Shown piece by piece: positions 180-12,156 of a DNA stretch of 12,156 nucleotides (its first letter is position 1; every line of letters starts with the position of its first letter). The notes under the pieces are model-generated. The model did not search any database. It saw nothing but the letters and a program-made list of their open reading frames with translations, and was not told the DNA's origin. The position numbers were made by a program, and so were the translations under genes. Origin of the DNA: a virus; UHGV virus genome UHGV-0071740, one strand, 5' to 3'.

Positions 180-512
180 ATGACGAGCAAAGAAACCTTT
201 ACCCATTACCAGCCGCTGGGCAACAGTGACCCGGCTTATACCGCAACCGCGCCCGGCGGATTGAGTGCGAAAGCGCCTGCAATGACCCCGCTGATGCTGG
301 ACACCTCCAGCCGTAAGCTGGTTGCGTGGGATGGCCCCACCGACGGTGCTGCCGTTGGCATTCTTGCGGTTGCTGCTGACCAGACCAGCACCACGCTGAC
401 GTTCTACAAGTCCGGCACGTTCCGTTATGAGGATGTGCTCTGGCCGGAGGCTGCCAGCGACGAGACGAAAAAACGGACCGCGTTTGCCGGAACGGCAATC
501 AGCATCGTTTAA
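180..512 (+). CDS. D: head decoration protein D (110 aa)
   Basis: ORF track 174..512; translation from ATG 180 ([12 protein letters not shown]...[11 protein letters not shown]) matches lambda gpD almost residue for residue as I recall it; the ATG at 174 only adds MF. Confidence 0.95.
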
Positions 513-567: not shown

Positions 568-812
568 ATGTCGATGTACACAACCGCCCAGCTGCTGGCG
601 GCAAATGAGCAGAAATTTAAGTTTGATCCGCTGTTTCTGTGTCTCTTTTTCCGTGAGAGCTATCCCTTCACCACGGAGAAAGTCTATCTCTCACAAATTC
701 CGGGACTGGTAAACATGGCGCTGTACGTTTCGCCGATTGTTTCCGGTGAGGTTATCCGTTCCCGTGGCGGCTCCACCTCTGAATTTACGCCGGGATATGT
801 CAAGCCGAAGCA
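568..812 (+). pseudogene. E: major capsid protein E, N-terminal fragment (codons 1-82), interrupted by insertion
   Basis: Translation from ATG 568 (MSMYTTAQLLAANEQKFKFDPLFL...GYVKPKH) matches the lambda gpE N-terminus; the frame then reads 9 foreign codons (LAWLSEAFV) to a stop at 841-843. The rest of E resumes at 7333. Confidence 0.95.
803..812. repeat. left copy of 10-bp direct repeat AGCCGAAGCA (attL core / target duplication)
   Basis: Identical 10-mer at 803-812 and 7333-7342, exactly at the two points where E coding sequence breaks and resumes. Confidence 0.8.
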
Positions 813-920
813 CTTAGCATGGCTTTCTGAGGCTTTCGTGTAGTTGCTGGTTTTTACACTTAATCTTTTGATAATAAAGAATAAGTTTATCTGGCGCTTT
901 CACTGGATTTTCCTCGTTAT

Positions 921-962
921 CTGTGTGTTGCAATCATCTCTGTATTGCAGCTTGTATTGCTT
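921..962. repeat. direct repeats of TGT(G)TTGCA-type motif (candidate integrase arm-type sites, left end)
   Basis: TGTGTGTTGCAA 923-934, TGTATTGCAG 941-950, TGTATTGC 953-960, the last two 12 bp apart; the same motif recurs at 7234-7256 near the other end. Confidence 0.55.
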
Positions 963-975
963 TTTGGGGCTAAAA

Positions 976-2211
976 ATGGCTGGCGAGAACAAACTGAGCG
1001 ACAAAGCACTTAAAGGATATCTGGGGAAACCCAGAGAAAAGCAGATCACCATTGCTGATGGAAAGGGGCTTTCTATTCGTGTGAGTACCAAGGGGGCTGT
1101 GAGCTTTGTTTTCTTCTACAGGTTAGCAGGTGGCCGGGCTGCTCCGGTCTGGCTAACGTTGGGTAAATATCCTGATATGTCACTCAAACAGGCAAGGGAA
1201 AAGCGCGACGAGTGCCGTGGTTGGTTGGCTGACAAACGTGATCCGCGTATCCAGATTAAGATTCAGGCTGAAGAACGCTTAAAGCCGGTCACAGTGGAGG
1301 ATGCACTAAATTACTGGTATGAAAATTACTGTAAGGTGCGTCGTAAAACTCATGCTGTAACGCTTGGCAGATTTCGAAAGCATATCTTTCCCTATATCGG
1401 TCATTTGCCCGTAAATGACACTCACCTATATGAATGGCTGGACTGTTTTGACCGAATTAAACGTAATGCACCAGTTATGGCGGCGTATGTTTTTTCTGAC
1501 ACTAAATTAGCTCTTCGTTTTTGTCGGGTACGCCAGTACGCGACGTGTGATGTTTTAAAGGATTTGCGCATGAGTGATGTGGGGCAGATTGCAGGTAAGC
1601 GGGATCGGGTTCTGGATGAAGCCGAACTGGGCCAGCTCTGGAAGGCAATTTTTGTCGAGCCTGATTTAAAACTAATGTCTGAATACACGCGAAAAATGTT
1701 TGTGCTTTGTACAGTATTTGGATGTCGAATGAGTGAAGCCCGATTATCTGAATGGAGCGAATGGGATCTCGAAAGTTGGGTTTGGACTGTACCAAAAGAT
1801 CACTCAAAAACTGGTGTTGAAATCGTCAGACCAGTACCTGAAATTCTACGACAGTGGGTAACGGATGTTCACGAAGAGACAAAACATACTGGTTATGTGC
1901 TGGGAAGTCTGCGAATTAGAGAAAGCGTAAGCAAGATTGGGGGGAAAATCGGTAAACGTTTGGGCCATGAAAAACAATGGTCACTACACGACCTTAGAAG
2001 AACGCTATCTACTCATCTAAGTGATCTCGGTGTTGAATTTTATGTAGTAGAACAACTGTTAGGCCATGCGCTACCTGGCGTGGCAGGTGTTTACAACCGG
2101 AGTAAGTTTATGGCTAAAAAACTGGATGCTCTGGAACTCTGGACTACATATCTCAATAGCATCGCAGGTGCTGATTCAAAAGTGACAATCCTCAAACAAA
2201 AGGCTGGTTAA
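976..2211 (+). CDS. int: tyrosine recombinase / phage integrase, P4-like with N-terminal arm-binding domain
   Basis: ORF track 844..2211; most plausible start is ATG 976 (MAGENKLSDKALKGYLGKP...). C-terminal catalytic signature HDLRRT...LLGHA...GVYNRS (conserved His/Arg and putative catalytic Tyr); sits next to the element boundary. Confidence 0.9.
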   Translation: MAGENKLSDKALKGYLGKPREKQITIADGKGLSIRVSTKGAVSFVFFYRLAGGRAAPVWLTLGKYPDMSLKQAREKRDECRGWLADKRDPRIQIKIQAEERLKPVTVEDALNYWYENYCKVRRKTHAVTLGRFRKHIFPYIGHLPVNDTHLYEWLDCFDRIKRNAPVMAAYVFSDTKLALRFCRVRQYATCDVLKDLRMSDVGQIAGKRDRVLDEAELGQLWKAIFVEPDLKLMSEYTRKMFVLCTVFGCRMSEARLSEWSEWDLESWVWTVPKDHSKTGVEIVRPVPEILRQWVTDVHEETKHTGYVLGSLRIRESVSKIGGKIGKRLGHEKQWSLHDLRRTLSTHLSDLGVEFYVVEQLLGHALPGVAGVYNRSKFMAKKLDALELWTTYLNSIAGADSKVTILKQKAG

Positions 2212-2212
2212 C

Positions 2213-2434
2213 ATGAAAAAAATGGCAATTGTTGATAAAAAGGGTCTGGAGTACATTCCTAACATCGATCGTATGATCCGTGAGAAAGAATGTCGGGAGC
2301 TAACCACTCTTGCAAACAGCACACGCTGGAAGCTGGAGAAGGAAGGAAAATTTCCTAAGCGGATCAAGATTGGTTCCACTGCTGTTGCATATCGTCTTTC
2401 AGAAGTGCAGGCATGGATTAGGGGAGAGTGGTAA
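2213..2434 (+). CDS. alpA: AlpA-family (CP4-57 type) DNA-binding regulator / excisionase-like protein
   Basis: 73-aa ORF starting 2 nt after the int stop; small basic protein with ...KRIKIGSTAVAYRLSEVQAWIRGEW, typical of AlpA/Vis-like winged-helix proteins that accompany satellite integrases. Confidence 0.75.
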   Translation: MKKMAIVDKKGLEYIPNIDRMIREKECRELTTLANSTRWKLEKEGKFPKRIKIGSTAVAYRLSEVQAWIRGEW

Positions 2435-3835
2435 GAATTTAGACAGTGGATGGAATCCTATGGGGGGAACCCATAGGGTTTTAAATAACATAAATTCAAA
2501 AACGTGCGTAGTTGATGAGATTATATAATTAGGTGGTAAGTATTGAACTATTTCTCCATCTTCTTCAAAAATATGAATAACTCTTGGGAATAATTCAGGG
2601 CGTATAGGATTTAATGCCTTCGGATTATGAAACATGTATATTGCTGTACACCATGGTTCTTGATATGAAGGTGCATTGACAAGAGCAGTAAAAGGCATTG
2701 GGGTACAGCCTTCATCAGTTTTAATACCTCTAACGATGGATTTGACATTTTTTTGTTCAATCCCTGCCACTACTCCCATTCTATCAAATTTTGGGATGGT
2801 GGCATGTGTCGCAAGTAATATGGCTGAGACATTCTCATTTTTATTAGAGCCGAAAAAATTAGATGGTATACTTCGATTTTCAAATAAATGTTGTTCAATT
2901 TTACTTCCAGAATCCATATCTACACCATACAGATAGCTTTGTAGTGCTGGCATTGATATACTCATCGAAAGTCTGTGTGAGTAATCGTGTAAAGCAATAA
3001 TGAAAGGCTTTCCTTTTGTATGATCTAGTTCCCAATAGCATAATTTTAAGGGTTCAGGTTTATGCCTAACTTTCTTTAATAGAGTGCGGGCAAATTTGAA
3101 TGGCATTTGTTCTTTTACATATCTCTGAAGATCTTCTACTGCCTCATGATCAAGTATCAATTTCTCGGTAGGTTCCTCTTGTTCTGCAACTGTGGCAGCT
3201 TCTACAGCAATATCAATGCCATTTTTTGAGATAATATAATCAGGTTGAGCATAATCTCTGCATATTACGAAATCCATTTCGTAGAAAACTGCGTTTAGAT
3301 AAAGTTCGAATAAGCGAGAGTTAAATGAAGCACTCTGGAAATCTCTGATGAATATTCCATCAGGATCTTTACACCAATAAGCTAACTCTTGCATAACAAT
3401 AAATGCAGGATAGTGTTTGGGTTCCTCAAGTAGCATTCTTAGATAAACGTTTTTTTTATGTTCTGGAACTTTGGCTAGGAATATTGAAAATGCCGACTCT
3501 GATTCGTCACCCTGTATAAAACAACCGTTCTTGTGTAGTGATAATAGCTCTGGTATGGCTTTTTCCATATCAGTAATTAAATCATCTTTAGATTCACGGG
3601 ATACAATTACTTTAATCGCTCTAAATTTTTTATCTAAATCCCTACCTAGAAATATAGCGTTGTAATCATTATCTATTTTACAAAAAACAATTGTTGCTAA
3701 GATTGTGACATCATCCTTTATAAATTTGAACCAACAGATTTCCTCCGAAAAGGTTTTTACGTATGGTGTACGACCATAGAAAAATACATCAAATTGTTCT
3801 TTACTGATTTCTAGCATTTTGTGACTTGTTGTCAT
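2399..3835 (-). CDS. hypothetical 478-aa protein, AT-rich, no family assignable by eye (candidate defence/effector cargo)
   Basis: Long uninterrupted minus-strand ORF; start ATG at 3835 preceded by AAGGA Shine-Dalgarno; lies 23 nt downstream of the RHH gene on the same strand; strongly AT-rich relative to its surroundings. Confidence 0.7.
   Translation of the reverse strand: MTTSHKMLEISKEQFDVFFYGRTPYVKTFSEEICWFKFIKDDVTILATIVFCKIDNDYNAIFLGRDLDKKFRAIKVIVSRESKDDLITDMEKAIPELLSLHKNGCFIQGDESESAFSIFLAKVPEHKKNVYLRMLLEEPKHYPAFIVMQELAYWCKDPDGIFIRDFQSASFNSRLFELYLNAVFYEMDFVICRDYAQPDYIISKNGIDIAVEAATVAEQEEPTEKLILDHEAVEDLQRYVKEQMPFKFARTLLKKVRHKPEPLKLCYWELDHTKGKPFIIALHDYSHRLSMSISMPALQSYLYGVDMDSGSKIEQHLFENRSIPSNFFGSNKNENVSAILLATHATIPKFDRMGVVAGIEQKNVKSIVRGIKTDEGCTPMPFTALVNAPSYQEPWCTAIYMFHNPKALNPIRPELFPRVIHIFEEDGEIVQYLPPNYIISSTTHVFEFMLFKTLWVPPIGFHPLSKFLPLSPNPCLHF
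2456..2482 (+). terminator. rho-independent terminator-like hairpin after alpA
   Basis: TCCTATGGG (2456-2464) / CCCATAGGG (2470-2478), 5-nt loop GGGAA, then TTTT 2479-2482; begins 22 nt after the alpA stop. Confidence 0.55.
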
Positions 3836-3858
3836 AGAAGAATCCTTTATGCAAATTA

Positions 3859-4053
3859 TCAGCCTTTAGGTGTTATTCCTTGTTTTATTAGTTCGGCACG
3901 AGCCAGTTCTTTTAGCCAGTTACCTAAGCTCATCCCTTCTTTGGCAGCGACATTAACCATTTGTTCTTTTAATTCTGGGTTAATACGGACTTGGAATGCT
4001 GGTGCTTTACCTGCACCTTTCGGTTGTTTATCACGTTGAATGATAGTTGACAT
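3859..4053 (-). CDS. Arc/CopG-like ribbon-helix-helix DNA-binding protein (putative regulator or antitoxin)
   Basis: 64-aa ORF; segment PAFQVRINPELKEQMVNVAAKEGMSLGNWLKELARAEL fits the beta-strand then helix pattern of Arc/MetJ-type RHH proteins; first gene of the operon with the 478-aa ORF. Confidence 0.6.
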   Translation of the reverse strand: MSTIIQRDKQPKGAGKAPAFQVRINPELKEQMVNVAAKEGMSLGNWLKELARAELIKQGITPKG

Positions 4054-4095
4054 GTGTGTACCTATTGCTTAGTATGATTCTTGATAGGTACACAC
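4054..4095. promoter_or_regulatory. perfect 12-bp inverted repeat GTGTGTACCTAT-N18-ATAGGTACACAC (operator-like)
   Basis: Arms at 4054-4065 and 4084-4095; lies between the predicted -10 and the RHH start codon (4051-4053). Confidence 0.6.
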
Positions 4096-4113
4096 CTTAT
4101 CATGTTTTATTGC

Positions 4114-4142
4114 TATATAACAACGCCCTGCAGTGCTCGCAA
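4114..4142 (-). promoter_or_regulatory. predicted sigma70 promoter for the RHH/478-aa operon
   Basis: On the minus strand: -35 TTGCGA (4142-4137), 17-bp spacer, -10 TATATA (4119-4114); would start transcription about 50 nt upstream of the RHH ATG. Confidence 0.5.
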
Positions 4143-4156
4143 CACATACAGGGCGT
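4123..4156. promoter_or_regulatory. second inverted repeat ACGCCCTG-N18-CAGGGCGT overlapping the predicted -35
   Basis: Perfect 8-bp arms at 4123-4130 and 4149-4156, with the same 18-nt spacer length as the 12-bp palindrome. Confidence 0.4.
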
Positions 4157-4390
4157 CTAACCACCAACGATAGCAACAGTATCGAGGTAGCTATGAGAAA
4201 TCATACCACACACCCGCAAGGGCGGGATTCGCACAACCTGAATAAATACATCTGGCGTTTTATCGCCCTGAGCACCGCACAACCACGCGTAATACACATC
4301 GAGGCCGCCAGCGAACAGGAAGCCCGCCAGCAATCCCCAACTGGCTACGTGATGATATTCGCCGCCCGTATTCGTCAGGAGGTGTGCCAT
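4157..4390 (-). CDS. possible small hydrophobic protein (77 aa); coding status uncertain
   Basis: ORF track; GC-rich block with frequent G at codon position 1 and common E. coli codons in this frame; hydrophobic stretch WGLLAGFLFAGGLDVYYAWLCGA. But its start codon overlaps the start and Shine-Dalgarno of the divergent + gene, which is awkward. Confidence 0.3.
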   Translation of the reverse strand: MAHLLTNTGGEYHHVASWGLLAGFLFAGGLDVYYAWLCGAQGDKTPDVFIQVVRIPPLRVCGMISHSYLDTVAIVGG

Positions 4391-4613
4391 GAATGATCTT
4401 TATTTTAAAGTGCTGACACATGCTGAAAACGCGCTCGTTTGTGGCAAAAATATGCGAGAAATCTTATCAACCTGGCTTGATGGGACAACAAATGCAGAAC
4501 ACGATGAACGGGATGCTAATTTAGCTGGAGCGTTAATTACGTTACTTGATCCTGTCATCAAAGAGCTGGATGAAGCTATAAAAATACACGACCAGAGCTA
4601 TACCGGAGAATAA
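4389..4613 (+). CDS. hypothetical protein (74 aa), first gene of the primase operon
   Basis: ATG 4389 preceded by AGGAGG 4377-4382; followed 3 nt later by the next ORF. Confidence 0.55.
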   Translation: MNDLYFKVLTHAENALVCGKNMREILSTWLDGTTNAEHDERDANLAGALITLLDPVIKELDEAIKIHDQSYTGE

Positions 4614-4616
4614 AAA

Positions 4617-4904
4617 ATGAAAAATAAATTTTCTGGCTTTATTGCCAGCGGTCAAACTCATTCAAAAATCAGCCTTGGGGATATTTTCAAAGACAGCTAT
4701 GGCTATCGGGTAAAGATTATTTCGGTTGATGATCGTCGTGTCTCTTATTTGCGTGATGGTTATGATTTTGAATGTGTTATGCCGCGTCAGCAGTTCGAAA
4801 GAGATTTCATTCTGGTAAAAAATTGCAAGACAGATAATCAGAGGCGTGCCGCAGGCTATATCCGTAAAATTCGGGCAATGTTAGTTGCCGGAGGTAACAA
4901 ATGA
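4617..4904 (+). CDS. hypothetical protein (95 aa), translationally coupled to primase
   Basis: ATG 4617 preceded by GGAGA; its stop overlaps the primase start (ATGA at 4901-4904). Confidence 0.55.
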   Translation: MKNKFSGFIASGQTHSKISLGDIFKDSYGYRVKIISVDDRRVSYLRDGYDFECVMPRQQFERDFILVKNCKTDNQRRAAGYIRKIRAMLVAGGNK

Positions 4905-6667
4905 AACGTGCTCCGAACTTAAAATACCAACCGCGCGACAAAATGACGGAAGTCATCATTTTTGCTGGCAGTGATGCCTGGAGCCATGCAAAAGAATGGA
5001 ATGAATGGGCAGGTAAGCATATTGCAGCAGATGATACACCACCAGTCATTCTGGGTACGGAACAACTGGAAAACCTGGATGATATGCAAATTATCGATGA
5101 AGGCCGTCATTATGTGCGTGTTTATCGTGCCGGAAAGATTGCAGAGAAAAGTCTGACGAAGGTTGCGACATTACTTGCTATTGCAGGCGTAAAGGAAGCA
5201 CGTTGTTACCGTAGCTTTGTTGATCGAGAGCCTGAAGACTGGACTCCGCGCCTTGTCGGCCTAAAAGCTGAAGCGGAGCATGGGGAAAGTCTGGTGATTG
5301 AACTGCCAGTGAAGAAGGCTGAGCGCAAAAATGACGAGCGTGCTTCATCTTTGGCGTTGAATCAGATGGGGGCCAGCCAGCGCGGTGAAGTTCTCCTTGC
5401 ACATTACGGCGGCGAACTGGCAATCAATGCCGACTCTGACACCGTTCATCATTACAACGGCGTTGTATGGGAGCCGGTTCAGGATAAAGAGTTACAGCGT
5501 GCTATGGCGCAGATTTTCATTGATGCGGAGATCAGCTATTCGCAGAACGCTATTAAATCGGCGGTAGATACCATGAAGTTAAGTTTGCCTGTAATGGGGA
5601 ATACAGCCCGTAACCTGATTGGATTCAGTAACGGGGTATTTGATACCAGAACTGGTAATTTTCGGGAGCATAACAAAAACGACTGGTTGTTAATTGCCAG
5701 TGAATTACCTTTCAGCCCACCAGCAGAGGGGGAAACGCTGGCAACACATGCGCCGAATTTCTGGAAGTGGTTGCGCCGTTCGGTGGCTGAGAATGACCGC
5801 AAGGCAGATCGCGTACTGGCGGCATTATTCATGGTGCTGGCGAACCGGTACGACTGGCAGTTATTCATTGAGGTAACAGGGCCGGGGGGAAGTGGTAAAA
5901 GTGTGATGGCGGAGATTTGCACCATGCTGGCGGGTAAGGCTAATACAGTATCAGCAAGCATGAAGGCGCTGGAAGATGCAAGGGAACGTGCGTTAGTGGT
6001 TGGCTTTTCGCTGATTATCATGCCGGATATGACCCGCTACGCTGGTGATGGGGCAGGGATTAAGGCCATTACAGGCGGTGACAAGGTGGCAATTGACCCG
6101 AAACACAAAGCCCCCTATTCAACGCGTATTCCGGCAGTAGTGCTGGCGGTTAACAATAACGCCATGTCATTCAGTGACCGCAGCGGGGGGATCTCACGTC
6201 GTCGGGTGATATTCAATTTTTCGGAAGTTGTACCGGAGAACGAACGCGATTCGATGCTGGCGGAAAAAATAGAAGGTGAGCTGGCGGTAGTGATTCGTCA
6301 TCTGCTTACAAGGTTTGCTGATCAGGACGAAGCCAGACGCCTGTTATATGAGCAGCAGAAATCTGAAGAAGCACTGGCGATAAAGCGAGAGGGGGATTCG
6401 CTGGTGGACTTCTGCGGTTATCTCATGGCATCGGTAATGTGTGATGGCCTGTTAGTGGGTAATGCTGAAATTGTGCCATTCAGCCCACGCAGGTATCTCT
6501 ATCATGCCTATCTTGATGAGCTGTTCGTTCCATGTGCATCACCGAGTTTATTACGAAGAGTACCTAACCCATTTACAACTGCAGAACAACCGCCGAGAAT
6601 TTGTTTGAAGATATTTTCAGTATGTTGGTCGGCAGATAGGTTAAGTTCTTTTGAAAGAGTTTTATAA
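4901..6667 (+). CDS. P4-family primase/helicase-like replication protein (D5_N-like region, SF3-type P-loop), C-terminus apparently truncated or chimeric
   Basis: 588-aa ORF; Walker A GPGGSGKS encoded near 5880-5900; hydrophobic-D Walker B-like LIIMPD; overall pattern of phage/plasmid primase P4-family C-terminal domain; the last ~50 codons are antisense to the HEPN gene and look like read-through. Confidence 0.8.
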   Translation: MKRAPNLKYQPRDKMTEVIIFAGSDAWSHAKEWNEWAGKHIAADDTPPVILGTEQLENLDDMQIIDEGRHYVRVYRAGKIAEKSLTKVATLLAIAGVKEARCYRSFVDREPEDWTPRLVGLKAEAEHGESLVIELPVKKAERKNDERASSLALNQMGASQRGEVLLAHYGGELAINADSDTVHHYNGVVWEPVQDKELQRAMAQIFIDAEISYSQNAIKSAVDTMKLSLPVMGNTARNLIGFSNGVFDTRTGNFREHNKNDWLLIASELPFSPPAEGETLATHAPNFWKWLRRSVAENDRKADRVLAALFMVLANRYDWQLFIEVTGPGGSGKSVMAEICTMLAGKANTVSASMKALEDARERALVVGFSLIIMPDMTRYAGDGAGIKAITGGDKVAIDPKHKAPYSTRIPAVVLAVNNNAMSFSDRSGGISRRRVIFNFSEVVPENERDSMLAEKIEGELAVVIRHLLTRFADQDEARRLLYEQQKSEEALAIKREGDSLVDFCGYLMASVMCDGLLVGNAEIVPFSPRRYLYHAYLDELFVPCASPSLLRRVPNPFTTAEQPPRICLKIFSVCWSADRLSSFERVL

Positions 6668-7173
6668 AGCTCTGACATTTCAATATTTTTATTATTATAC
6701 TGAATGCCCATATCATCAAGAATGTGTTTGCAAACTGTTTCAAGAAGTGTTCTTGCGGAGGTTATCGCACCATCCGGATCTGTATGGCGCCGTTCAAGTG
6801 CTTTTATCCAAACGGCGTGGACTCCATCCTCGTTAAACTTTCTTAATACATCAGATATGTCTTCATCCGCTGGAGCTTTATTTTTCCCTTCTAGATAGTC
6901 CAGCATCGGCTGAAATGCCTTATAAATCAAATCTCTCCGGGGGGCATACTTTTCAGTCTTTTTTATAAATCCCCAAAATTCTTTTAGTGAGCGATTAGTT
7001 CTCACAAACTCTGGTAATAGCTGATGTAAAGGAGGATTTTGTAAGAAATATGTTCTTAGAAGCAAATAATCATTATTAGCTTCATCCTGGGCTCCTGTAG
7101 CTCTTGCAATTAGTATGTTTTGAAGCGCTACTGCGCGCTCTAGGTCATTTTGAAGGGTATCTATAATATTCAT
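6508..7173 (-). CDS. HEPN-type abortive-infection-like protein (Abi_C-like), 221 aa
   Basis: Minus-strand ORF, AT-rich; C-terminal GLGTLRNKLGDAHG contains an R-x6-H motif of the HEPN/Abi_C type; only 7 residues follow the motif His, so the protein may be C-terminally shortened. Confidence 0.55.
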   Translation of the reverse strand: MNIIDTLQNDLERAVALQNILIARATGAQDEANNDYLLLRTYFLQNPPLHQLLPEFVRTNRSLKEFWGFIKKTEKYAPRRDLIYKAFQPMLDYLEGKNKAPADEDISDVLRKFNEDGVHAVWIKALERRHTDPDGAITSARTLLETVCKHILDDMGIQYNNKNIEMSELYKTLSKELNLSADQHTENIFKQILGGCSAVVNGLGTLRNKLGDAHGTNSSSR

Positions 7174-7233
7174 AACAAATCTTTATTCACTTCATTTGTG
7201 GGTTGATAATTGAATGGTTTGTACATTGATTTC

Positions 7234-7256
7234 TGTGTATTGCAGTGTGTATTGCA
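7234..7256. repeat. tandem direct repeat TGTGTATTGCA x2 (candidate integrase arm-type sites, right end)
   Basis: Copies at 7234-7244 and 7246-7256 (12-bp register), about 80-100 bp inside the right junction; same motif and orientation as the left-end copies. Confidence 0.55.
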
Positions 7257-7332
7257 ACATAGCCATTCAGGTAGAGATTATGCTCTATTTTTCCTCTTAT
7301 ATCATTCACATACTTACACCATTGACTCATGT

Positions 7333-7342
7333 AGCCGAAGCA
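7333..7342. repeat. right copy of 10-bp direct repeat AGCCGAAGCA (attR core)
   Basis: Identical to 803-812; lambda-like E sequence resumes from here. Confidence 0.8.
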
Positions 7343-8123
7343 TGAAGTGAATCCGCAGATGACCCTGCGTCGCCTGCCGGATGAAGATCCGCAGAATCTG
7401 GCGGACCCGGCTTACCGCCGCCGTCGCATCATCATGCAGAACATGCGTGACGAAGAGCTGGCCATTGCTCAGGTCGAAGAGATGCAGGCAGTTTCTGCCG
7501 TGCTTAAGGGCAAATACACCATGACCGGTGAAGCCTTCGATCCGGTTGAGGTGGATATGGGCCGCAGTGAGGAGAATAACATCACGCAGTCCGGCGGCAC
7601 GGAGTGGAGCAAGCGTGACAAGTCCACGTATGACCCGACCGACGATATCGAAGCCTACGCGCTGAACGCCAGCGGTGTGGTGAATATCATCGTGTTCGAT
7701 CCGAAAGGCTGGGCGCTGTTCCGTTCCTTCAAAGCCGTCAAGGAGAAGCTGGATACCCGTCGTGGCTCTAATTCCGAGCTGGAGACAGCGGTGAAAGACC
7801 TGGGCAAAGCGGTGTCCTATAAGGGGATGTATGGCGATGTGGCCATCGTCGTGTATTCCGGACAGTACGTGGAAAACGGCGTCAAAAAGAACTTCCTGCC
7901 GGACAACACGATGGTGCTGGGGAACACTCAGGCACGCGGTCTGCGCACCTATGGCTGCATTCAGGATGCGGACGCACAGCGCGAAGGCATTAACGCCTCT
8001 GCCCGTTACCCGAAAAACTGGGTGACCACCGGCGATCCGGCGCGTGAGTTCACCATGATTCAGTCAGCACCGCTGATGCTGCTGGCTGACCCTGATGAGT
8101 TCGTGTCCGTACAACTGGCGTAA
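7333..8123 (+). pseudogene. E: major capsid protein E, C-terminal fragment (codon ~80 to end), no start codon of its own
   Basis: Frame open from 7335, with an in-frame TAG at 7332-7334 just upstream; translation ...KPKHEVNPQMTLRRLPDEDPQN...DEFVSVQLA matches the remainder of lambda gpE. Confidence 0.95.
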
Positions 8124-8164: not shown

Positions 8165-8563
8165 ATGACGAAAGATGAACTGATTGCCCGTCTCCGCTCG
8201 CTGGGTGAACAACTGAACCGTGATGTCAGCCTGACGGGGACGAAAGAAGAACTGGCGCTCCGTGTGGCAGAGCTGGAAGAGGAGCTTGATGACACGGATG
8301 AAACTGCCGGTCAGGACACCCCTCTCAGCCGGGAAAATGTGCTGACCGGACATGAAAATGAGGTGGGATCAGCGCAGCCGGATACCGTGATTCTGGATAC
8401 GTCTGAACTGGTCACGGTCGTGGCACTGGTGAAGCTGCATACTGATGCACTTCACGCCACGCGGGATGAACCTGTGGCATTTGTGCTGCCGGGAACGGCG
8501 TTTCGTGTCTCTGCCGGTGTGGCAGCCGAAATGACAGAGCGCGGCCTGGCCAGAATGCAATAA
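8165..8563 (+). CDS. FI: DNA packaging / head assembly protein FI
   Basis: Translation from ATG 8165 (MTKDELIARLRSLGEQLNRD...ERGLARMQ) matches lambda gpFI; GGAGGA Shine-Dalgarno 8155-8160. Confidence 0.9.
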   Translation: MTKDELIARLRSLGEQLNRDVSLTGTKEELALRVAELEEELDDTDETAGQDTPLSRENVLTGHENEVGSAQPDTVILDTSELVTVVALVKLHTDALHATRDEPVAFVLPGTAFRVSAGVAAEMTERGLARMQ

Positions 8564-8574
8564 CGGGAGGCGCT

Positions 8575-8928
8575 GTGGCTGATTTCGATAACCTGTTCGA
8601 TGCTGCCATTGCCCGCGCCGATGAAACGATACGCGGGTACATGGGAACGTCAGCCACCATGACATCCGGTGAGCAGTCAGGTGCGGTGATACGTGGTGTT
8701 TTTGATGACCCTGAAAATATCAGCTATGCCGGACAGGGCGTGCGCGTTGAAGGCTCCAGCCCGTCCCTGTTTGTCCGGACTGATGAGGTGCGGCAGCTGC
8801 GGCGTGGAGACACGCTGACCATCGGTGAGGAAAATTTCTGGGTAGATCGGGTTTCGCCGGATGATGGCGGAAGTTGTCATCTCTGGCTTGGACGGGGCGT
8901 ACCGCCTGCCGTTAACCGTCGCCGCTGA
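8575..8928 (+). CDS. FII: head-tail joining protein FII
   Basis: GTG start 8575 after GGGAGG; translation MADFDNLFDAAIARADETIRGYMG...PPAVNRRR matches lambda gpFII. Confidence 0.9.
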   Translation: MADFDNLFDAAIARADETIRGYMGTSATMTSGEQSGAVIRGVFDDPENISYAGQGVRVEGSSPSLFVRTDEVRQLRRGDTLTIGEENFWVDRVSPDDGGSCHLWLGRGVPPAVNRRR

Positions 8929-8939
8929 AAGGGGGATGT

Positions 8940-9518
8940 ATGGCCATAAAAGGTCTTGAGCAGGCCGTTGAAAACCTCAGCCGTATCAGCAAAACGGCGG
9001 TGCCTGGTGCCGCCGCAATGGCCATTAACCGCGTTGCTTCATCCGCGATATCGCAGTCGGCGTCACAAGTTGCCCGTGAGACAAAGGTACGCCGGAAACT
9101 GGTAAAGGAAAGGGCCAGGCTGAAAAGGGCCACGGTCAAAAATCCGCAGGCCAGAATCAAAGTTAACCGGGGGGATTTGCCCGTAATCAAGCTGGGTAAT
9201 GCGCGGGTTGTCCTTTCGCGCCGCAGGCGTCGTAAAAAGGGGCAGCGTTCATCCCTGAAAGGTGGCGACAGCGTGCTTGTGGTGGGTAACCGTCGTATTC
9301 CCGGCGCGTTTATTCAGCAACTGAAAAATGGCCGGTGGCATGTCATGCAGCGTGTGGCCGGGAAAAACCGTTACCCCATTGATGTGGTGAAAATCCCGAT
9401 GGCGGTGCCGCTGACCACGGCGTTTAAACAAAATATTGAGCGGATACGGCGTGAACGTCTTCCGAAAGAGCTGGGCTATGCGCTGCAGCATCAACTGAGG
9501 ATGGTAATAAAGCGATGA
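8940..9518 (+). CDS. Z: tail assembly protein Z
   Basis: Translation MAIKGLEQAVENLSRISKTAVPGAAAMAINRV... matches lambda gpZ. Confidence 0.9.
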   Translation: MAIKGLEQAVENLSRISKTAVPGAAAMAINRVASSAISQSASQVARETKVRRKLVKERARLKRATVKNPQARIKVNRGDLPVIKLGNARVVLSRRRRRKKGQRSSLKGGDSVLVVGNRRIPGAFIQQLKNGRWHVMQRVAGKNRYPIDVVKIPMAVPLTTAFKQNIERIRRERLPKELGYALQHQLRMVIKR

Positions 9519-9910
9519 AACATACTGAACTCCGTGCAGCCGTACTGGATGCACTGGAGAAGCATGACACCGGGGCGACGTTTTTTGATGGTCGCCCCGC
9601 TGTTTTTGATGAGGCGGATTTTCCGGCAGTTGCCGTTTATCTCACCGGCGCTGAATACACGGGCGAAGAGCTGGACAGCGATACCTGGCAGGCGGAGCTG
9701 CATATCGAAGTTTTCCTGCCTGCTCAGGTGCCGGATTCAGAGCTGGATGCGTGGATGGAGTCCCGGATTTATCCGGTGATGAGCGATATCCCGGCACTGT
9801 CAGATTTGATCACCAGTATGGTGACCAGCGGCTATGACTACCGGCGCGACGATGATGCGGGCCTGTGGAGGTCAGCCGCTCTTACTTATGTCATTACCTA
9901 TGAAATGTGA
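9515..9910 (+). CDS. U: tail terminator protein U
   Basis: Start overlaps the Z stop (ATGA); translation [31 protein letters not shown]... matches lambda gpU. Confidence 0.9.
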
Positions 9911-9917
9911 GGACGCT

Positions 9918-10658
9918 ATGCCTGTACCAAATCCTACAATGCCGGTGAAAGGTGCCGGGACCACCCTGTGGGTTTATAAGGGGAGCGGTGACCCTTATGC
10001 GAATCCGCTTTCAGACGTTGACTGGTCGCGTCTGGCAAAAGTTAAAGACCTGACGCCCGGCGAACTGACCGCTGAGTCCTATGACGACAGCTATCTCGAT
10101 GATGAAGATGCAGACTGGACTGCGACCGGGCAGGGGCAGAAATCTGCCGGAGATACCAGCTTCACGCTGGCGTGGATGCCCGGAGAGCAGGGGCAGCAGG
10201 CGCTGCTGGCGTGGTTTAATGAAGGCGATACCCGTGCCTATAAAATCCGCTTCCCGAACGGCACGGTCGATGTGTTCCGTGGCTGGGTCAGCAGTATCGG
10301 TAAGGCGGTGACGGCGAAGGAAGTGATCACCCGCACGGTGAAAGTCACCAATGTGGGACGTCCGTCGATGGCAGAAGATCGCAGCACGGTAACAGCGGCA
10401 ACCGGCATGACCGTGACGCCTGCCAGCACCTCGGTGGTGAAAGGGCAGAGCACCACGCTGACCGTGGCCTTCCAGCCGGAGGGCGTAACCGACAAGAGCT
10501 TTCGTGCGGTGTCTGCGGATAAAACAAAAGCCACCGTGTCGGTCAGTGGTATGACCATCACCGTGAACGGCGTTGCTGCAGGCAAGGTCAACATTCCGGT
10601 TGTATCCGGTAATGGTGAGTTTGCTGCGGTTGCAGAAATTACCGTCACCGCCAGTTAA
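9918..10658 (+). CDS. V: major tail tube protein V with C-terminal Ig-like domain
   Basis: Translation from ATG 9918 ([22 protein letters not shown]...) matches lambda gpV, 246 aa; the ORF track start at 9834 is an upstream extension overlapping U. Confidence 0.95.
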
Positions 10659-10673
10659 TCCGGAGAGTCAGCG

Positions 10674-11096
10674 ATGTTCCTGAAAACCGAATCATTTGAA
10701 CATAACGGTGTGACCGTCACGCTTTCTGAACGGTCAGCCCTGCAGCGCATTGAGCATCTCGCCCTGATGAAACGGCAGGCAGAACAGGCGGAGTCAGACA
10801 GCAACCGGAAGTTTACTGTGGAAGACGCCATCAGAACCGGCGCGTTTCTGGTGGCGATGTCCCTGTGGCATAACCATCCGCAGAAGACGCAGATGCCGTC
10901 CATGAATGAAGCCGTTAAACAGATTGAGCAGGAAGTGCTTACCACCTGGCCCACGGAGGCAATTTCTCATGCTGAAAACGTGGTGTACCGGCTGTCTGGT
11001 ATGTATGAGTTTGTGGTGAATGATGCCCCTGAACAGGCAGAGGACGCCGGGCCTGCAGAGCCTGTTTCTGCGGGAAAGTGTTCGACGGTGAGCTGA
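10674..11096 (+). CDS. G: tail assembly chaperone G
   Basis: Translation MFLKTESFEHNGVTVTLSERSALQRIEHLALMKRQAEQ... matches lambda gpG, 140 aa. Confidence 0.9.
   Translation: MFLKTESFEHNGVTVTLSERSALQRIEHLALMKRQAEQAESDSNRKFTVEDAIRTGAFLVAMSLWHNHPQKTQMPSMNEAVKQIEQEVLTTWPTEAISHAENVVYRLSGMYEFVVNDAPEQAEDAGPAEPVSAGKCSTVS
11072..11078 (+). promoter_or_regulatory. programmed -1 ribosomal frameshift slippery heptamer GGGAAAG (G to G-T fusion)
   Basis: Heptamer in the G frame as G GGA AAG, six codons before the G stop; the T frame opens in the -1 frame exactly here. Confidence 0.85.
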
Positions 11097-11512
11097 GTTT
11101 TGCCCTGAAACTGGCGCGCGAGATGGGGCGACCCGACTGGCGTGCCATGCTTGCCGGGATGTCATCCACGGAGTATGCCGACTGGCACCGCTTTTACAGT
11201 ACCCATTATTTTCATGATGTTCTGCTGGATATGCACTTTTCCGGGCTGACGTACACCGTGCTCAGCCTGTTTTTCAGCGATCCGGATATGCATCCGCTGG
11301 ATTTCAGTCTGCTGAACCGGCGCGAGGCTGACGAAGAGCCTGAAGATGATGTGCTGATGCAGAAAGCGGCAGGGCTTGCCGGAGGCGTTCGTTTTGGCCC
11401 GGACGGGAATGAAGTTATCCCCGCTTCCCCGGATGTGGCGGACATGACGGAGGATGACGTAATGCTGATGACAGTATCAGAAGGGATCGCAGGAGGAGTC
11501 CGGTATGGCTGA
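11078..11512 (+). CDS. T: tail assembly protein T, expressed only as a G-T fusion via the -1 frameshift
   Basis: -1 frame ORF with no convincing own start; translation ...FDGELSFALKLAREMGRPDWRAMLAGMSSTEYADWHRFYSTHYFHDV... matches lambda gpT. Confidence 0.85.
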   Translation: MFDGELSFALKLAREMGRPDWRAMLAGMSSTEYADWHRFYSTHYFHDVLLDMHFSGLTYTVLSLFFSDPDMHPLDFSLLNRREADEEPEDDVLMQKAAGLAGGVRFGPDGNEVIPASPDVADMTEDDVMLMTVSEGIAGGVRYG

Positions 11513-12156
11513 ACCGGTAGGCGATCTGGTCGTTGATTTAAGTCTGGATGCGGCCAGATTTGACGAGCAGATGGCCAGAGTCAGGCGTCATTTTTCCGGT
11601 ACGGAAAGTGATGCGAAAAAAACAGCGGCAGTCGTTGAACAGTCGCTGAGCCGACAGGCGCTGGCTGCACAGAAAGCGGGGATTTCCGTCGGGCAGTATA
11701 AAGCCGCCATGCGTATGCTGCCTGCACAGTTCACCGACGTGGCCACGCAGCTTGCAGGCGGGCAAAGTCCGTGGCTGATCCTGCTGCAACAGGGGGGTCA
11801 GGTTAAGGACTCCTTCGGCGGGATGATCCCCATGTTCAGGGGGCTTGCCGGCCACCTCGCTGGCGGTGGCGACCGGTGCGCTGGCGTATGCCTGGTATCA
11901 GGGCAACTCAACCCTGTCCGATTTCAACAAAACGCTGGTCCTTTCCGGCAATCAGGCGGGACTGACGGCAGATCGTATTCTGGCCCTGTCCAGAGCCGGG
12001 CAGGCGGCAGGGCTGACGTTTAACCAGACCAGCGAGTCACTCAGCGCACTGGTTAAGGCGGGGGTAAGCGGTGAGGCTCAGATTGCGTCCATCAGCCAGA
12101 GTGTGGCGCGTTTCTCCTCTGCATCCGGCGCGGCGGGGGACAAGGTCGCTGAAGCC
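11505..12156 (+). pseudogene. H: tail tape measure protein H, 5' part, frame-disrupted near 11850 (3' partial, runs off window end)
   Basis: ATG 11505 (MAEPVGDLVVDLSLDAARFDEQ...) matches the lambda gpH N-terminus, but this frame ends at 12023 after a Gly/Arg-rich nonsense tail, while the +1 frame is open from 11827 to the window end and reads ATSLAVATGALAYAWYQGNSTLSDFNKTLVLSGNQAGLTADR... Confidence 0.7.

Follow-up and report, generated by a model that had tools for sequence, protein, structure and literature searches.

The split E gene and its reconstruction

The window, the whole stretch of 12,156 nucleotides analysed here (UHGV-0071740), is a contig of metagenome assembly ERZ1742012 with 4.2x coverage. 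It carries late genes of a lambdoid prophage that resides at the Qin locus. The head decoration gene D (180..512, + strand; called gene, PF02924 HDPD) is followed by the 5′ part of the capsid gene E (568..812, + strand), an ORF that comprises codons 1–81 and two bases of codon 82. The 3′ part of E, from the third base of codon 82 to the stop codon, lies at 7343..8123 (+ strand; assigned by the in-silico join described below). Between the two parts sits an integrated island of 6,530 bp (813..7342, + strand), the GC content of which is 33–52%, versus ~57% in the flanks. Downstream of E, the late genes FI, FII, Z, U, V, G, and T (8165..11512, + strand) are full length and match the expected Pfam families.

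The tape-measure gene H (11505..12023, + strand) is frameshifted by a 26-bp deletion between positions 11849 and 11850. This deletion is missing from the sibling contigs L006 and L011, in which H is 853 aa long or reads on, and is probably an assembly artefact of the 4x-coverage contig or a rare variant. In view of the intact H of the sibling contigs and the 4x coverage of the window, we do not take the frameshift as a sign of a dead helper.

In the integrated state, the 5′ ORF of E continues into unrelated island DNA and ends with a stop at 843. The resulting 91-aa product matches PF03864 (Phage_cap_E), and the island does not supply a replacement for the missing part of the gene. E is therefore interrupted as long as the island is integrated, as the first-pass annotation had stated. 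Sequence comparison reveals a 10-bp identity block, the core AGCCGAAGCA, at both junctions (attL copy, 803..812; attR copy, 7333..7342). Neither strand of the window has a further copy of the core, and the sequences flanking the two copies on their outer sides are unrelated. The core covers codons 79–82 of gpE, which agrees with the site group E:Phage_cap_E:80, defined by insertion near codon 80 of the Phage_cap_E profile.

The first-pass annotation had proposed that, with the core inside the E frame, recombination between attL and attR would restore E, and had named a stop or a frameshift in the rebuilt gene as what would speak against the proposal. In accordance with the proposal, joining 568–812 to 7343–8123 in silico yields 1026 nt in frame, a single ORF of 341 aa with no stop and no frameshift. 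Residues 5–339 of the rebuilt protein align to positions 1–328 of the PF03864 profile. The in-silico attB of 240 nt (120 nt per side) is 100% identical to positions 6260–6499 of lambda J02459.1 and is likewise 100% identical in HK630, 434, and others. The rebuilt attB junction reads ...GTCAAGCCGAAGCATGAAGTG... and the attP junction reads ...CATGTAGCCGAAGCACTTAGC....

The rebuilt protein shows one difference, R25C, from lambda gpE. The substitution lies in the 5′ part of E and is common to the whole lineage; read from the sequence, position 25 is R in the E fragments of three relatives. On 75 public contigs, a major capsid protein with exactly the rebuilt sequence, including C25, is encoded without interruption.

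Excision module, cargo, and internal deletion

The island carries an int-alpA module at one end, as Gram-negative phage-inducible chromosomal islands (PICIs) do. The tyrosine integrase (Int; 976..2211, + strand) is an intact protein of 411 aa, co-oriented with E, that matches Pfam Arm-DNA-bind_3 and the full length of Phage_integrase. By direct reading, the motifs at the expected catalytic R, HxxR, H, and Y positions are all present, and 409 of the 411 residues are identical to those of the 11capE Int from E. coli NRG857c. The adjacent alpA gene (2213..2434, + strand) encodes a 73-aa protein of the excisionase/activator family (PF05930 Phage_AlpA, E = 2.7e-15) that is identical to 11capE AlpA at 73 of 75 positions (97%).

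Each end of the island also bears a doubled TGTATTGC motif, a putative arm-type site. One pair (939..960, + strand; cores at 941 and 953) lies ~132 bp downstream of the attP centre, and the other (7234..7256, + strand; cores at 7236 and 7248) ends ~81 bp upstream of it. The two pairs are co-oriented, and with att core centres at 7337.5 and 807.5 their spacing fits the definition of helper-embedded PICIs (HE-PICIs), in which one doubled motif precedes the attP centre by 81 ± 2 bp and the other follows it at 132 ± 2 bp (PMC10111431). We find no disabling mutation in int, alpA, either core, or any of the four TGTATTGC half-sites.

The genes int, alpA, and primase are all on the + strand, co-oriented with D, E, and FI through H, and no terminator-like site is predicted on this strand between the E fragment and int. 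A search of the whole window against Rfam at gathering thresholds gives no match, and immunity RNAs of the C4/isrK type, which are present in some PICIs (PMC10111431), are not detected.

The variable zone contains a PD-T7-1 anti-phage defence gene (2399..3835, − strand; PADLOC PD-T7-1, E = 9e-154), the match of which spans positions 1–448 of the 452-position profile. Its true stop is probably at 2486, corresponding to the 449-aa form that is present in sibling contigs; in the window, a cluster of eight substitutions (2453–2501) that occurs in no other copy abolishes this stop, and the frame reads through to 2399. This cluster and the 26-bp deletion in H may well both be artefacts.

Several small genes follow. 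A 64-aa protein of HicB-like/ribbon-helix-helix type (3859..4053, − strand), a probable regulator, matches PF05534 HicB weakly, slightly below the curated cut-off; its homologue in relative L001 is labelled HicB family antitoxin in RefSeq. A called gene for a 67-aa Icd-like protein (4193..4396, + strand) has a homologue in the same relative that is annotated 'host cell division inhibitor Icd-like'. The conserved genes for a 74-aa hypothetical protein and a DUF4222 protein (together 4389..4904, + strand; DUF4222 E = 3e-22) encode products 100% and 99% identical, respectively, to their 11capE homologues.

Comparison with the 11.2-kb element of the L002 type shows that 4,700 bp have been deleted from the interior of the island; the joint is at position 6513 and has 1-nt microhomology. 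The lost segment comprises the iteron cluster, SSB, an HTH gene, terS, and the cos-like region, together with homologues of the capsid and decoration genes. The joint affects the genes on both of its sides. The primase/helicase gene (4901..6667, + strand; D5_N and DUF5906) is authentic only up to 6513; its last 51 codons are out-of-context sequence that runs antisense through the Abi gene, and the protein is ~69 C-terminal residues short of the 606 aa seen in relatives. The AbiJ-like abortive-infection gene (6508..7173, − strand; Pfam Abi_C, PADLOC AbiJ) is truncated C-terminally because of the deletion: its product has 221 aa versus 253 aa at full length and covers positions 2–57 of the 83-position Abi_C profile. 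The full-length gene is present in L002.

Downstream of the primase gene, four full-size relatives carry 8–10 copies of the iterons CTGTTCACC/GGTGAACAG; the window carries none. In a BLAST search with the helper cos region, 11capE shows a cos-like segment of 258 bp at 89.9% identity and the relatives match over 72–258 bp; the window gives no match. The simple cosN pattern GGGCGGCGACCT, allowing at most one mismatch, has no site in any island. Neither the ORF list nor Pfam reveals a capsid, decoration, or terS gene within the window island, and the full-size relatives encode their own E and D homologues.

The window island is therefore no longer a working satellite, because the origin, the cos-like site, the late genes, and the primase C-terminus are missing. 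What defines a functional PICI, namely an own origin with an intact primase and a packaging signal or redirection genes, is absent from it. Of the four zones in the family order (integration, Bro/variable, replication, and late), the late zone is gone and the replication zone has been cut short. This 6.5-kb copy could not plausibly be transferred as a satellite. The element is a descendant of the HE-PICI family that has lost complete membership.

Kinship and recurrence of the island

The arrangement is already known and was described in 2023. HE-PICIs were named, surveyed, and partly tested by Tommasini, Mageeney, and Williams (NAR Genom Bioinform 2023, PMC10111431), who list 201 further instances of the E:Phage_cap_E:80 site. 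The identity block of the E site is agccgaagca or aacccaagca, with target-gene replacement sequence absent; in Supplementary File 1, the block 'agccgaagca' is entered for E_Phage_cap_E_80 HE-PICIs (PMC10111431). 11capE excises precisely 2 h after mitomycin C, and no helper or satellite virions were recovered in its system. The authors call such an arrangement 'regulated gene integrity' and regard the regulation as benefiting the satellite, not the phage or the cell (PMC10111431).

The window island shares with the 11capE group (Eco567.11capE) the target codons, the core block, the late-operon orientation, and the doubled TGTATTGC at about −81 and +132 bp. Gene order is common to both through the integration, variable, and replication zones up to the primase. 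Int (99.5% identical) is placed in the HE-PICI E-site subclade by its 409/411 identity; a tree is not the basis of this placement. The window copy differs in its size, 6.5 kb compared with ~11 kb in the 11capE family, since the deletion has removed the late zone in full and the terminal part of the replication zone, and in its variable-zone cargo, PD-T7-1. Among the HE-PICIs in the part of the supplement of PMC10111431 available to us, there is no element of 6.5 kb. The first-pass annotation, which described a prophage, had read the splitting and rebuilding of E correctly and missed that the interrupting element is a satellite (PICI).

Precise site-specific excision restores a split gene in the skin element (Bacillus subtilis sigK) and in phi10403S (Listeria comK). 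By analogy, the window resembles skin and active-lysogeny elements in that a gene is split without replacement sequence and its integrity would be conditional. Here, however, the split gene is a prophage gene, and the interrupter is a satellite and not a (defective) prophage.

Gram-negative PICIs such as EcCICFT073 (PMC6092414, PMC6739421) likewise combine an int-alpA module, a primase-type replication module, small size, and defence cargo in a variable region, and the family relies on lambdoid helpers. Classical PICIs are located in chromosomal genes and contact the helper in trans only (Fillol-Salom et al. 2018, PMC6092414; 2019, PMC6739421), whereas the window island lies inside a helper late gene and has neither the origin nor the packaging functions by which a mobilisable PICI is defined. 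The satellite phage P4 has an integrase super-clade related to that of HE-PICIs (PMC10111431) and shares the D5_N/DUF5906 primase, alpA, and an Icd-like gene, but it differs in its helper (P2 instead of a lambdoid phage) and its integration target. Pfam searches over the island ORFs reveal no homologues of Psu, Sid, or Delta and no epsilon-type capsid-size or helper-control families. With psu, sid, and delta absent, classification as a P4-like satellite is ruled out.

The junctions recur widely. Of 5,426 complete E. coli genomes, 173 carry the attL junction, and attR with the same right end is present in 45 genomes. At least 24 independent assemblies contain the identical short element, at ~99.9% identity, one of them in a 401-kb contig (ERZ28757217 contig_4937). 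It is absent from the complete E. coli genomes, in which only one record covers at least 80% of the island and its match ends at the joint; the deletion joint has no exact match among one-genome-per-species genome contigs.

The finished genome of E. coli TO6 contains the empty site. It matches the left flank of the window island over 10.2 kb and the right flank over 9.3 kb, at 99.9% identity, and the overlap between the flanks there is precisely the 10-bp core. As in a gene-integrity switch, the gene is split without replacement and would be rebuilt exactly by site-specific excision, to judge from the in-silico join and the natural empty site.

As indirect evidence of excision, a gut-metagenome contig contains an exact attP junction; it belongs to a full-size relative sharing the right end of the window island. 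This relative carries the other core variant AACCCAAGCA, and a tandem array would look the same. An exact attP pattern search of IMG/VR viral contigs gives no match, and an attP junction specific to the 6.5-kb copy is not found.

Excision, inheritance, and capsid gene integrity

The best joint explanation, which we consider very probable, is that the window island is an HE-PICI of the E:Phage_cap_E:80 group (11capE family), reduced by the 4.7-kb deletion to a remnant that Int and AlpA may still excise. Excision is plausible given that both att arms are intact, as are int and alpA. Int and AlpA would then still be able to release the 6.5-kb copy and rebuild E. Helper late transcription that reads through into their genes may drive their expression, or an incoming phage may activate them, and expression of E would stay conditional on excision. 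The excised circle could neither replicate nor be packaged, and therefore the copy would be a dead-end remnant inherited vertically. It may have been retained owing to the PD-T7-1 defence gene. The first-pass interpretation is partly supported. Its central idea is right, namely that the integrity of the capsid gene depends on precise int/alpA-mediated excision, which would rebuild E; the same is proposed in PMC10111431.

The first-pass annotation had further suggested that the element would control virion production upon SOS induction. The dependence of gene integrity on excision stands, but control of virion output is doubtful in this lineage, because the near-isogenic TO6 prophage is without annotated integrase, immunity, and replication genes. 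The TO6 prophage is also IS-truncated, and judging from this relative the host prophage of the window is probably defective as well. The switch would therefore probably have little effect on virion output in the lineage.

The main alternative, to which we give a clearly smaller though appreciable chance, is a fixed fossil that does not excise: E would be permanently inactivated in a cryptic prophage, int and alpA would never act productively, and only the defence cargo would function. The loss of replication and packaging with the deletion, the gene content of the TO6 prophage, the near-unchanged state of the derivative in many samples, which fits purely vertical inheritance, and the failure to find the attP junction of this copy are consistent with it. 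However, int, alpA, the cores, and the TGTATTGC half-sites are undamaged, whereas in a fossil they would be expected to decay alongside the rest; Int is 2 of 411 residues off an integrase known to excise; and the deletion may simply be recent.

In a further reading, the 6.5-kb derivative is a satellite that is turning into a resident cassette of the Qin-type prophage, a pure gene-integrity switch with a defence module for the late operon of that prophage; owing to its small size of 6.5 kb, it might also travel in cis in a recombinant helper genome instead of in its own virion. This reading rests on the shedding of the origin, cos, and capsid genes, the retention of int-alpA-att and PD-T7-1, and the nearly unchanged persistence in at least 24 metagenome assemblies, and we consider it improbable.

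Two other explanations have next to no probability, as the recurrence of the attL junction in 173 genomes and of the short element in at least 24 assemblies leaves the junction neither a chance event nor an assembly chimera. Insertion of a chromosomal PICI or P4-like island into E as a chance secondary site would suit a core of just 10 bp and the occasional off-target integration by HE-PICI integrases (PMC10111431), but is refuted by the same junction in those complete genomes and in the published instances, and is opposed by the canonical spacing of the doubled motifs and the near-identity of Int to the E-site type integrase. A metagenome chimera of a prophage and an unrelated island could be suspected in a low-coverage contig with the window-only anomalies in H and PD-T7-1; for the junctions it is refuted by the identical architecture in independent assemblies, including the 401-kb contig, and by their presence in complete, finished genomes.

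Returning to the 11capE-family remnant, we conclude that the observation is real and correctly read, and that the copy is probably decaying. To the known arrangement the window adds a near-isogenic empty site, clean and from the finished E. coli TO6 genome, and one more case of an HE-PICI whose variable zone carries defence cargo, here PD-T7-1. It also adds a natural deletion derivative in which the integration/excision module is separated from the satellite functions, a possible minimal test object for the switch. In this arrangement a phage parasite is lodged in the capsid gene of its helper, and no helper heads are made until the parasite exits.

Capsid gene E and its empty site

A 6.5-kb block of 33–52% GC splits the lambda-type late region of the window (D, E, FI, FII, Z, U, V, G, T, and the start of H; ~57% GC) between 812 and 7343. 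The core AGCCGAAGCA is present at 803–812 and 7333–7342, with no third copy in the window, and the two flanks are unrelated outside the ten core bases. The first-pass annotation claimed that excision would regenerate an uninterrupted E ORF. In accordance, joining 568–812 to 7343–8123 in silico gives 1026 nt with a single 341-aa ORF. Over 240 nt, the rebuilt junction matches lambda J02459.1 6260–6499 with 100% identity, and likewise many other lambdoid phages.

The rebuilt protein differs from lambda gpE by R25C only (CGT to TGT, window 640–642; codon 25 lies in the capsid protein's N-terminal arm). Residue 25 reads as R in the E fragments of three relatives, and R25C is common to the whole window lineage. 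The exact rebuilt protein, including C25, is uninterrupted on 75 public contigs. R25C is also present in E fragments split by full-size islands, and the exact 91-aa product of the E fragment occurs in 106 blocks. R25C is therefore a common allele and not decay after insertion.

Among these 75 contigs is the finished E. coli TO6 genome, in which a prophage aligns with the flanks of the window lineage at 99.9% identity (10.2 kb on the left side, 9.3 kb on the right side). The two alignments overlap by exactly the 10-bp core, indicating that TO6 carries a natural empty site. The split E with precise core junctions is thus confirmed as a real feature, and the reasoning of the first-pass annotation was correct.

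With a 240-nt query across attL, at least 80% of which had to be matched, the junction is found in 173 of 5,426 complete E. coli genomes; the E segment alone occurs in ~3,200 of them. The attR junction with the right end of the window is present in 45 genomes. In other genomes the match is confined to E and the 42 island nucleotides next to it, indicating that island right ends vary. This recurrence of the junctions excludes both off-target integration and an assembly chimera.

Relationship to the 11capE family

The first gene of the block encodes a tyrosine integrase (int, 976–2211, + strand), followed by AlpA (2213–2434, + strand) and, on the − strand, a PD-T7-1 anti-phage defence protein of 449/478 aa (2399–3835, true stop probably at 2486; full-length PADLOC match, E = 9e-154). 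Next come a small HicB-like protein, an Icd-like protein, a 74-aa protein, a DUF4222 protein, the primase (D5_N/DUF5906, 4901–6667, + strand), and last, on the opposite strand, an Abi_C protein.

Eco567.11capE, an 11-kb PICI with a 10-bp identity block, resides in E. coli NRG857c, where it interrupts a prophage's lambda-E-like capsid gene (PMC10111431). Upon mitomycin C treatment the composite excises and replicates, and satellite excision is then precise at 2 h, with a yield of 42–98% (PMC10111431). The same work counts 201 further instances at the E:Phage_cap_E:80 site, gives the block 'agccgaagca' for members of this group in its Supplementary File 1, and places a doubled motif tgTGTATTGCantgTGTATTGCa on either side of the attP centre, 81 ± 2 bp upstream and 132 ± 2 bp downstream (PMC10111431). 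In the window, the motif cores lie at 7236/7248 and 941/953 and the core centres at 7337.5 and 807.5, reproducing both spacings. The integrase is identical to that of 11capE at 409 of 411 positions, and AlpA at 73 of 75. By descent, the island undoubtedly belongs to the 11capE family. The published system is matched in every defining feature tested, except the late and replication zones, which are lost to deletion. A split of E by an excisable island is therefore already known; what is mildly new here is the deletion derivative.

The island is ~11 kb in the four finished genomes inspected (SCU-316, KMi006, AST215, and NRG857c), and attL and attR are 10.4–11.3 kb apart where both junctions are listed. 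Downstream of the primase, these islands also carry a small ORF, SSB, homologues of the major capsid and head-decoration genes that are their own, and an HTH gene, together with variable cargo, e.g. terS, Abi, restriction endonuclease, or HEPN/DUF262. The PD-T7-1 protein matches no Pfam family. At its position in the variable zone of the island, relatives carry other cargo (DUF2971 plus SWIM, Abi, or a 178-aa hypothetical protein), which marks a defence hotspot. The late variable zone at the right end of full-size E-site islands also holds defence-like cargo, namely TIR_2/DUF3298, HEPN plus DUF262, or a restriction endonuclease (L014 19612–20276, L005 10537–12253, and L001 15941–16813).

An internal deletion in this copy

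Mapping against the KMi006-type element, which has the same right end, reveals a clean 4,700-bp deletion with its joint at 6513 and one base of microhomology. About 69 last codons of the primase are gone, and its ORF now continues for 51 codons in antisense to the Abi gene. The AbiJ-like gene has lost its C-terminus; the Abi_C match ends at profile position 57 of 83. The SSB, the capsid and decoration homologues, the HTH gene, and terS are gone as well. Also lost is an intergenic iteron cluster (CTGTTCACC/GGTGAACAG), with 8–10 copies in each of four full-size relatives and zero in the window. In all full-size relatives the cluster, which is dense and has CTGTTCACC in both orientations, lies directly 3' of the primase gene (11capE contig L005, 7044–7290; L001, 11925–12147; L002, 9065–9287; L003, 19919–20141) and is presumably the replication origin. 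The 258-bp, 90% match reported for the cos-like segment of 11capE (PMC10111431) is reproduced, and a search of the window for this segment gives no match. The island is therefore no longer expected to replicate or be packaged.

The derivative is absent from all 5,426 complete E. coli genomes. Its exact 588-aa primase fusion protein is recorded in 25 blocks of assemblies, and five aligned sibling contigs are ~99.9% identical to the window (ENA ERZ1742012 NODE_1002, coverage 4.2).

Two anomalies are specific to the window. A 26-bp deletion at 11849/11850 frameshifts the tape-measure gene H after residue ~116; it is not present in siblings L006 and L011, where H has 853 aa or reads on. Contig L007 has a different anomaly at this spot. 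Eight substitutions within 49 bp (2453–2501) abolish the stop of PD-T7-1, making its ORF 29 codons longer. They fall within a hairpin (CCTATGGG...CCCATAGG) and next to it, where alpA and PD-T7-1 converge; L001, L006, and L010 agree with one another against the window. Given the 4x coverage and the absence from sibling contigs, we treat both as probable assembly artefacts; the H deletion probably arose where several lambdoid prophages collapse.

Excision and the host prophage

In identity and anatomy, the island is very probably a decayed HE-PICI. Its integration module is without lesion: the arm motifs and cores are intact, and the integrase is 99.5% identical to the one with published excision. 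From these sequences, we lean towards an island that still excises. The main alternative is a completely inert fossil, which the deletion would allow; set against the intact module, this is less likely.

A weak consensus scan predicts no + strand terminator-like site between the E fragment and int, compatible with the published idea that helper late transcription runs into the island (PMC10111431).

In L012, a human-gut metagenome contig, the right end of a KMi006-type island is joined directly to int via the core AACCCAAGCA. This is the attP expected from an excised circle; a tandem array would give the same picture. The core has two synonymous variants, AGCCGAAGCA (window 803–812) and AACCCAAGCA (L005 1331–1340; L012 6611–6620). 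Comparison of two integrated elements, those of the window and 11capE, shows at each junction the variant found in that element's own host E gene. L012 has the AACCC variant, yet its right arm is 99.8% identical to that of the window, suggesting a crossover in the AAGCA part or core conversion on integration.

Upstream of Nu1, a 401-kb sibling contig carries holin, DUF1327, lysozyme, DUF2514, cold-shock, gnsB-type, and DUF1398 genes, in the TO6 order essD(Q)-ydfR-rrrQ-rzpQ-cspI-gnsB-ydfO-ynfO-nohA. The TO6 prophage occupies the Qin locus, with rspB on one side and ydfK/pinQ on the other. Its annotation includes antiterminator, lysis, and complete late genes and no integrase, immunity, or replication genes; the rspB-flxA segment holds IS remnants only. 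In this prophage (NZ_LS992166.1 2379204-2415262), IS elements replace the early left end; the lambda-type late operon is complete from Nu1 through J, and the tail fibres are kept. K-12 Qin ends after nohA. Given its near-isogeny with TO6, from which the early region is deduced, the window lineage probably has a defective Qin-type prophage as its helper.

A truncated appearance is also noted for many HE-PICI helpers (PMC10111431). For the decayed HE-PICI of the window, we propose that the Int/AlpA module could still restore E. The island would no longer be a satellite and would pass on by vertical inheritance of the prophage, itself probably defective; its PD-T7-1 defence gene may be the reason it is kept.
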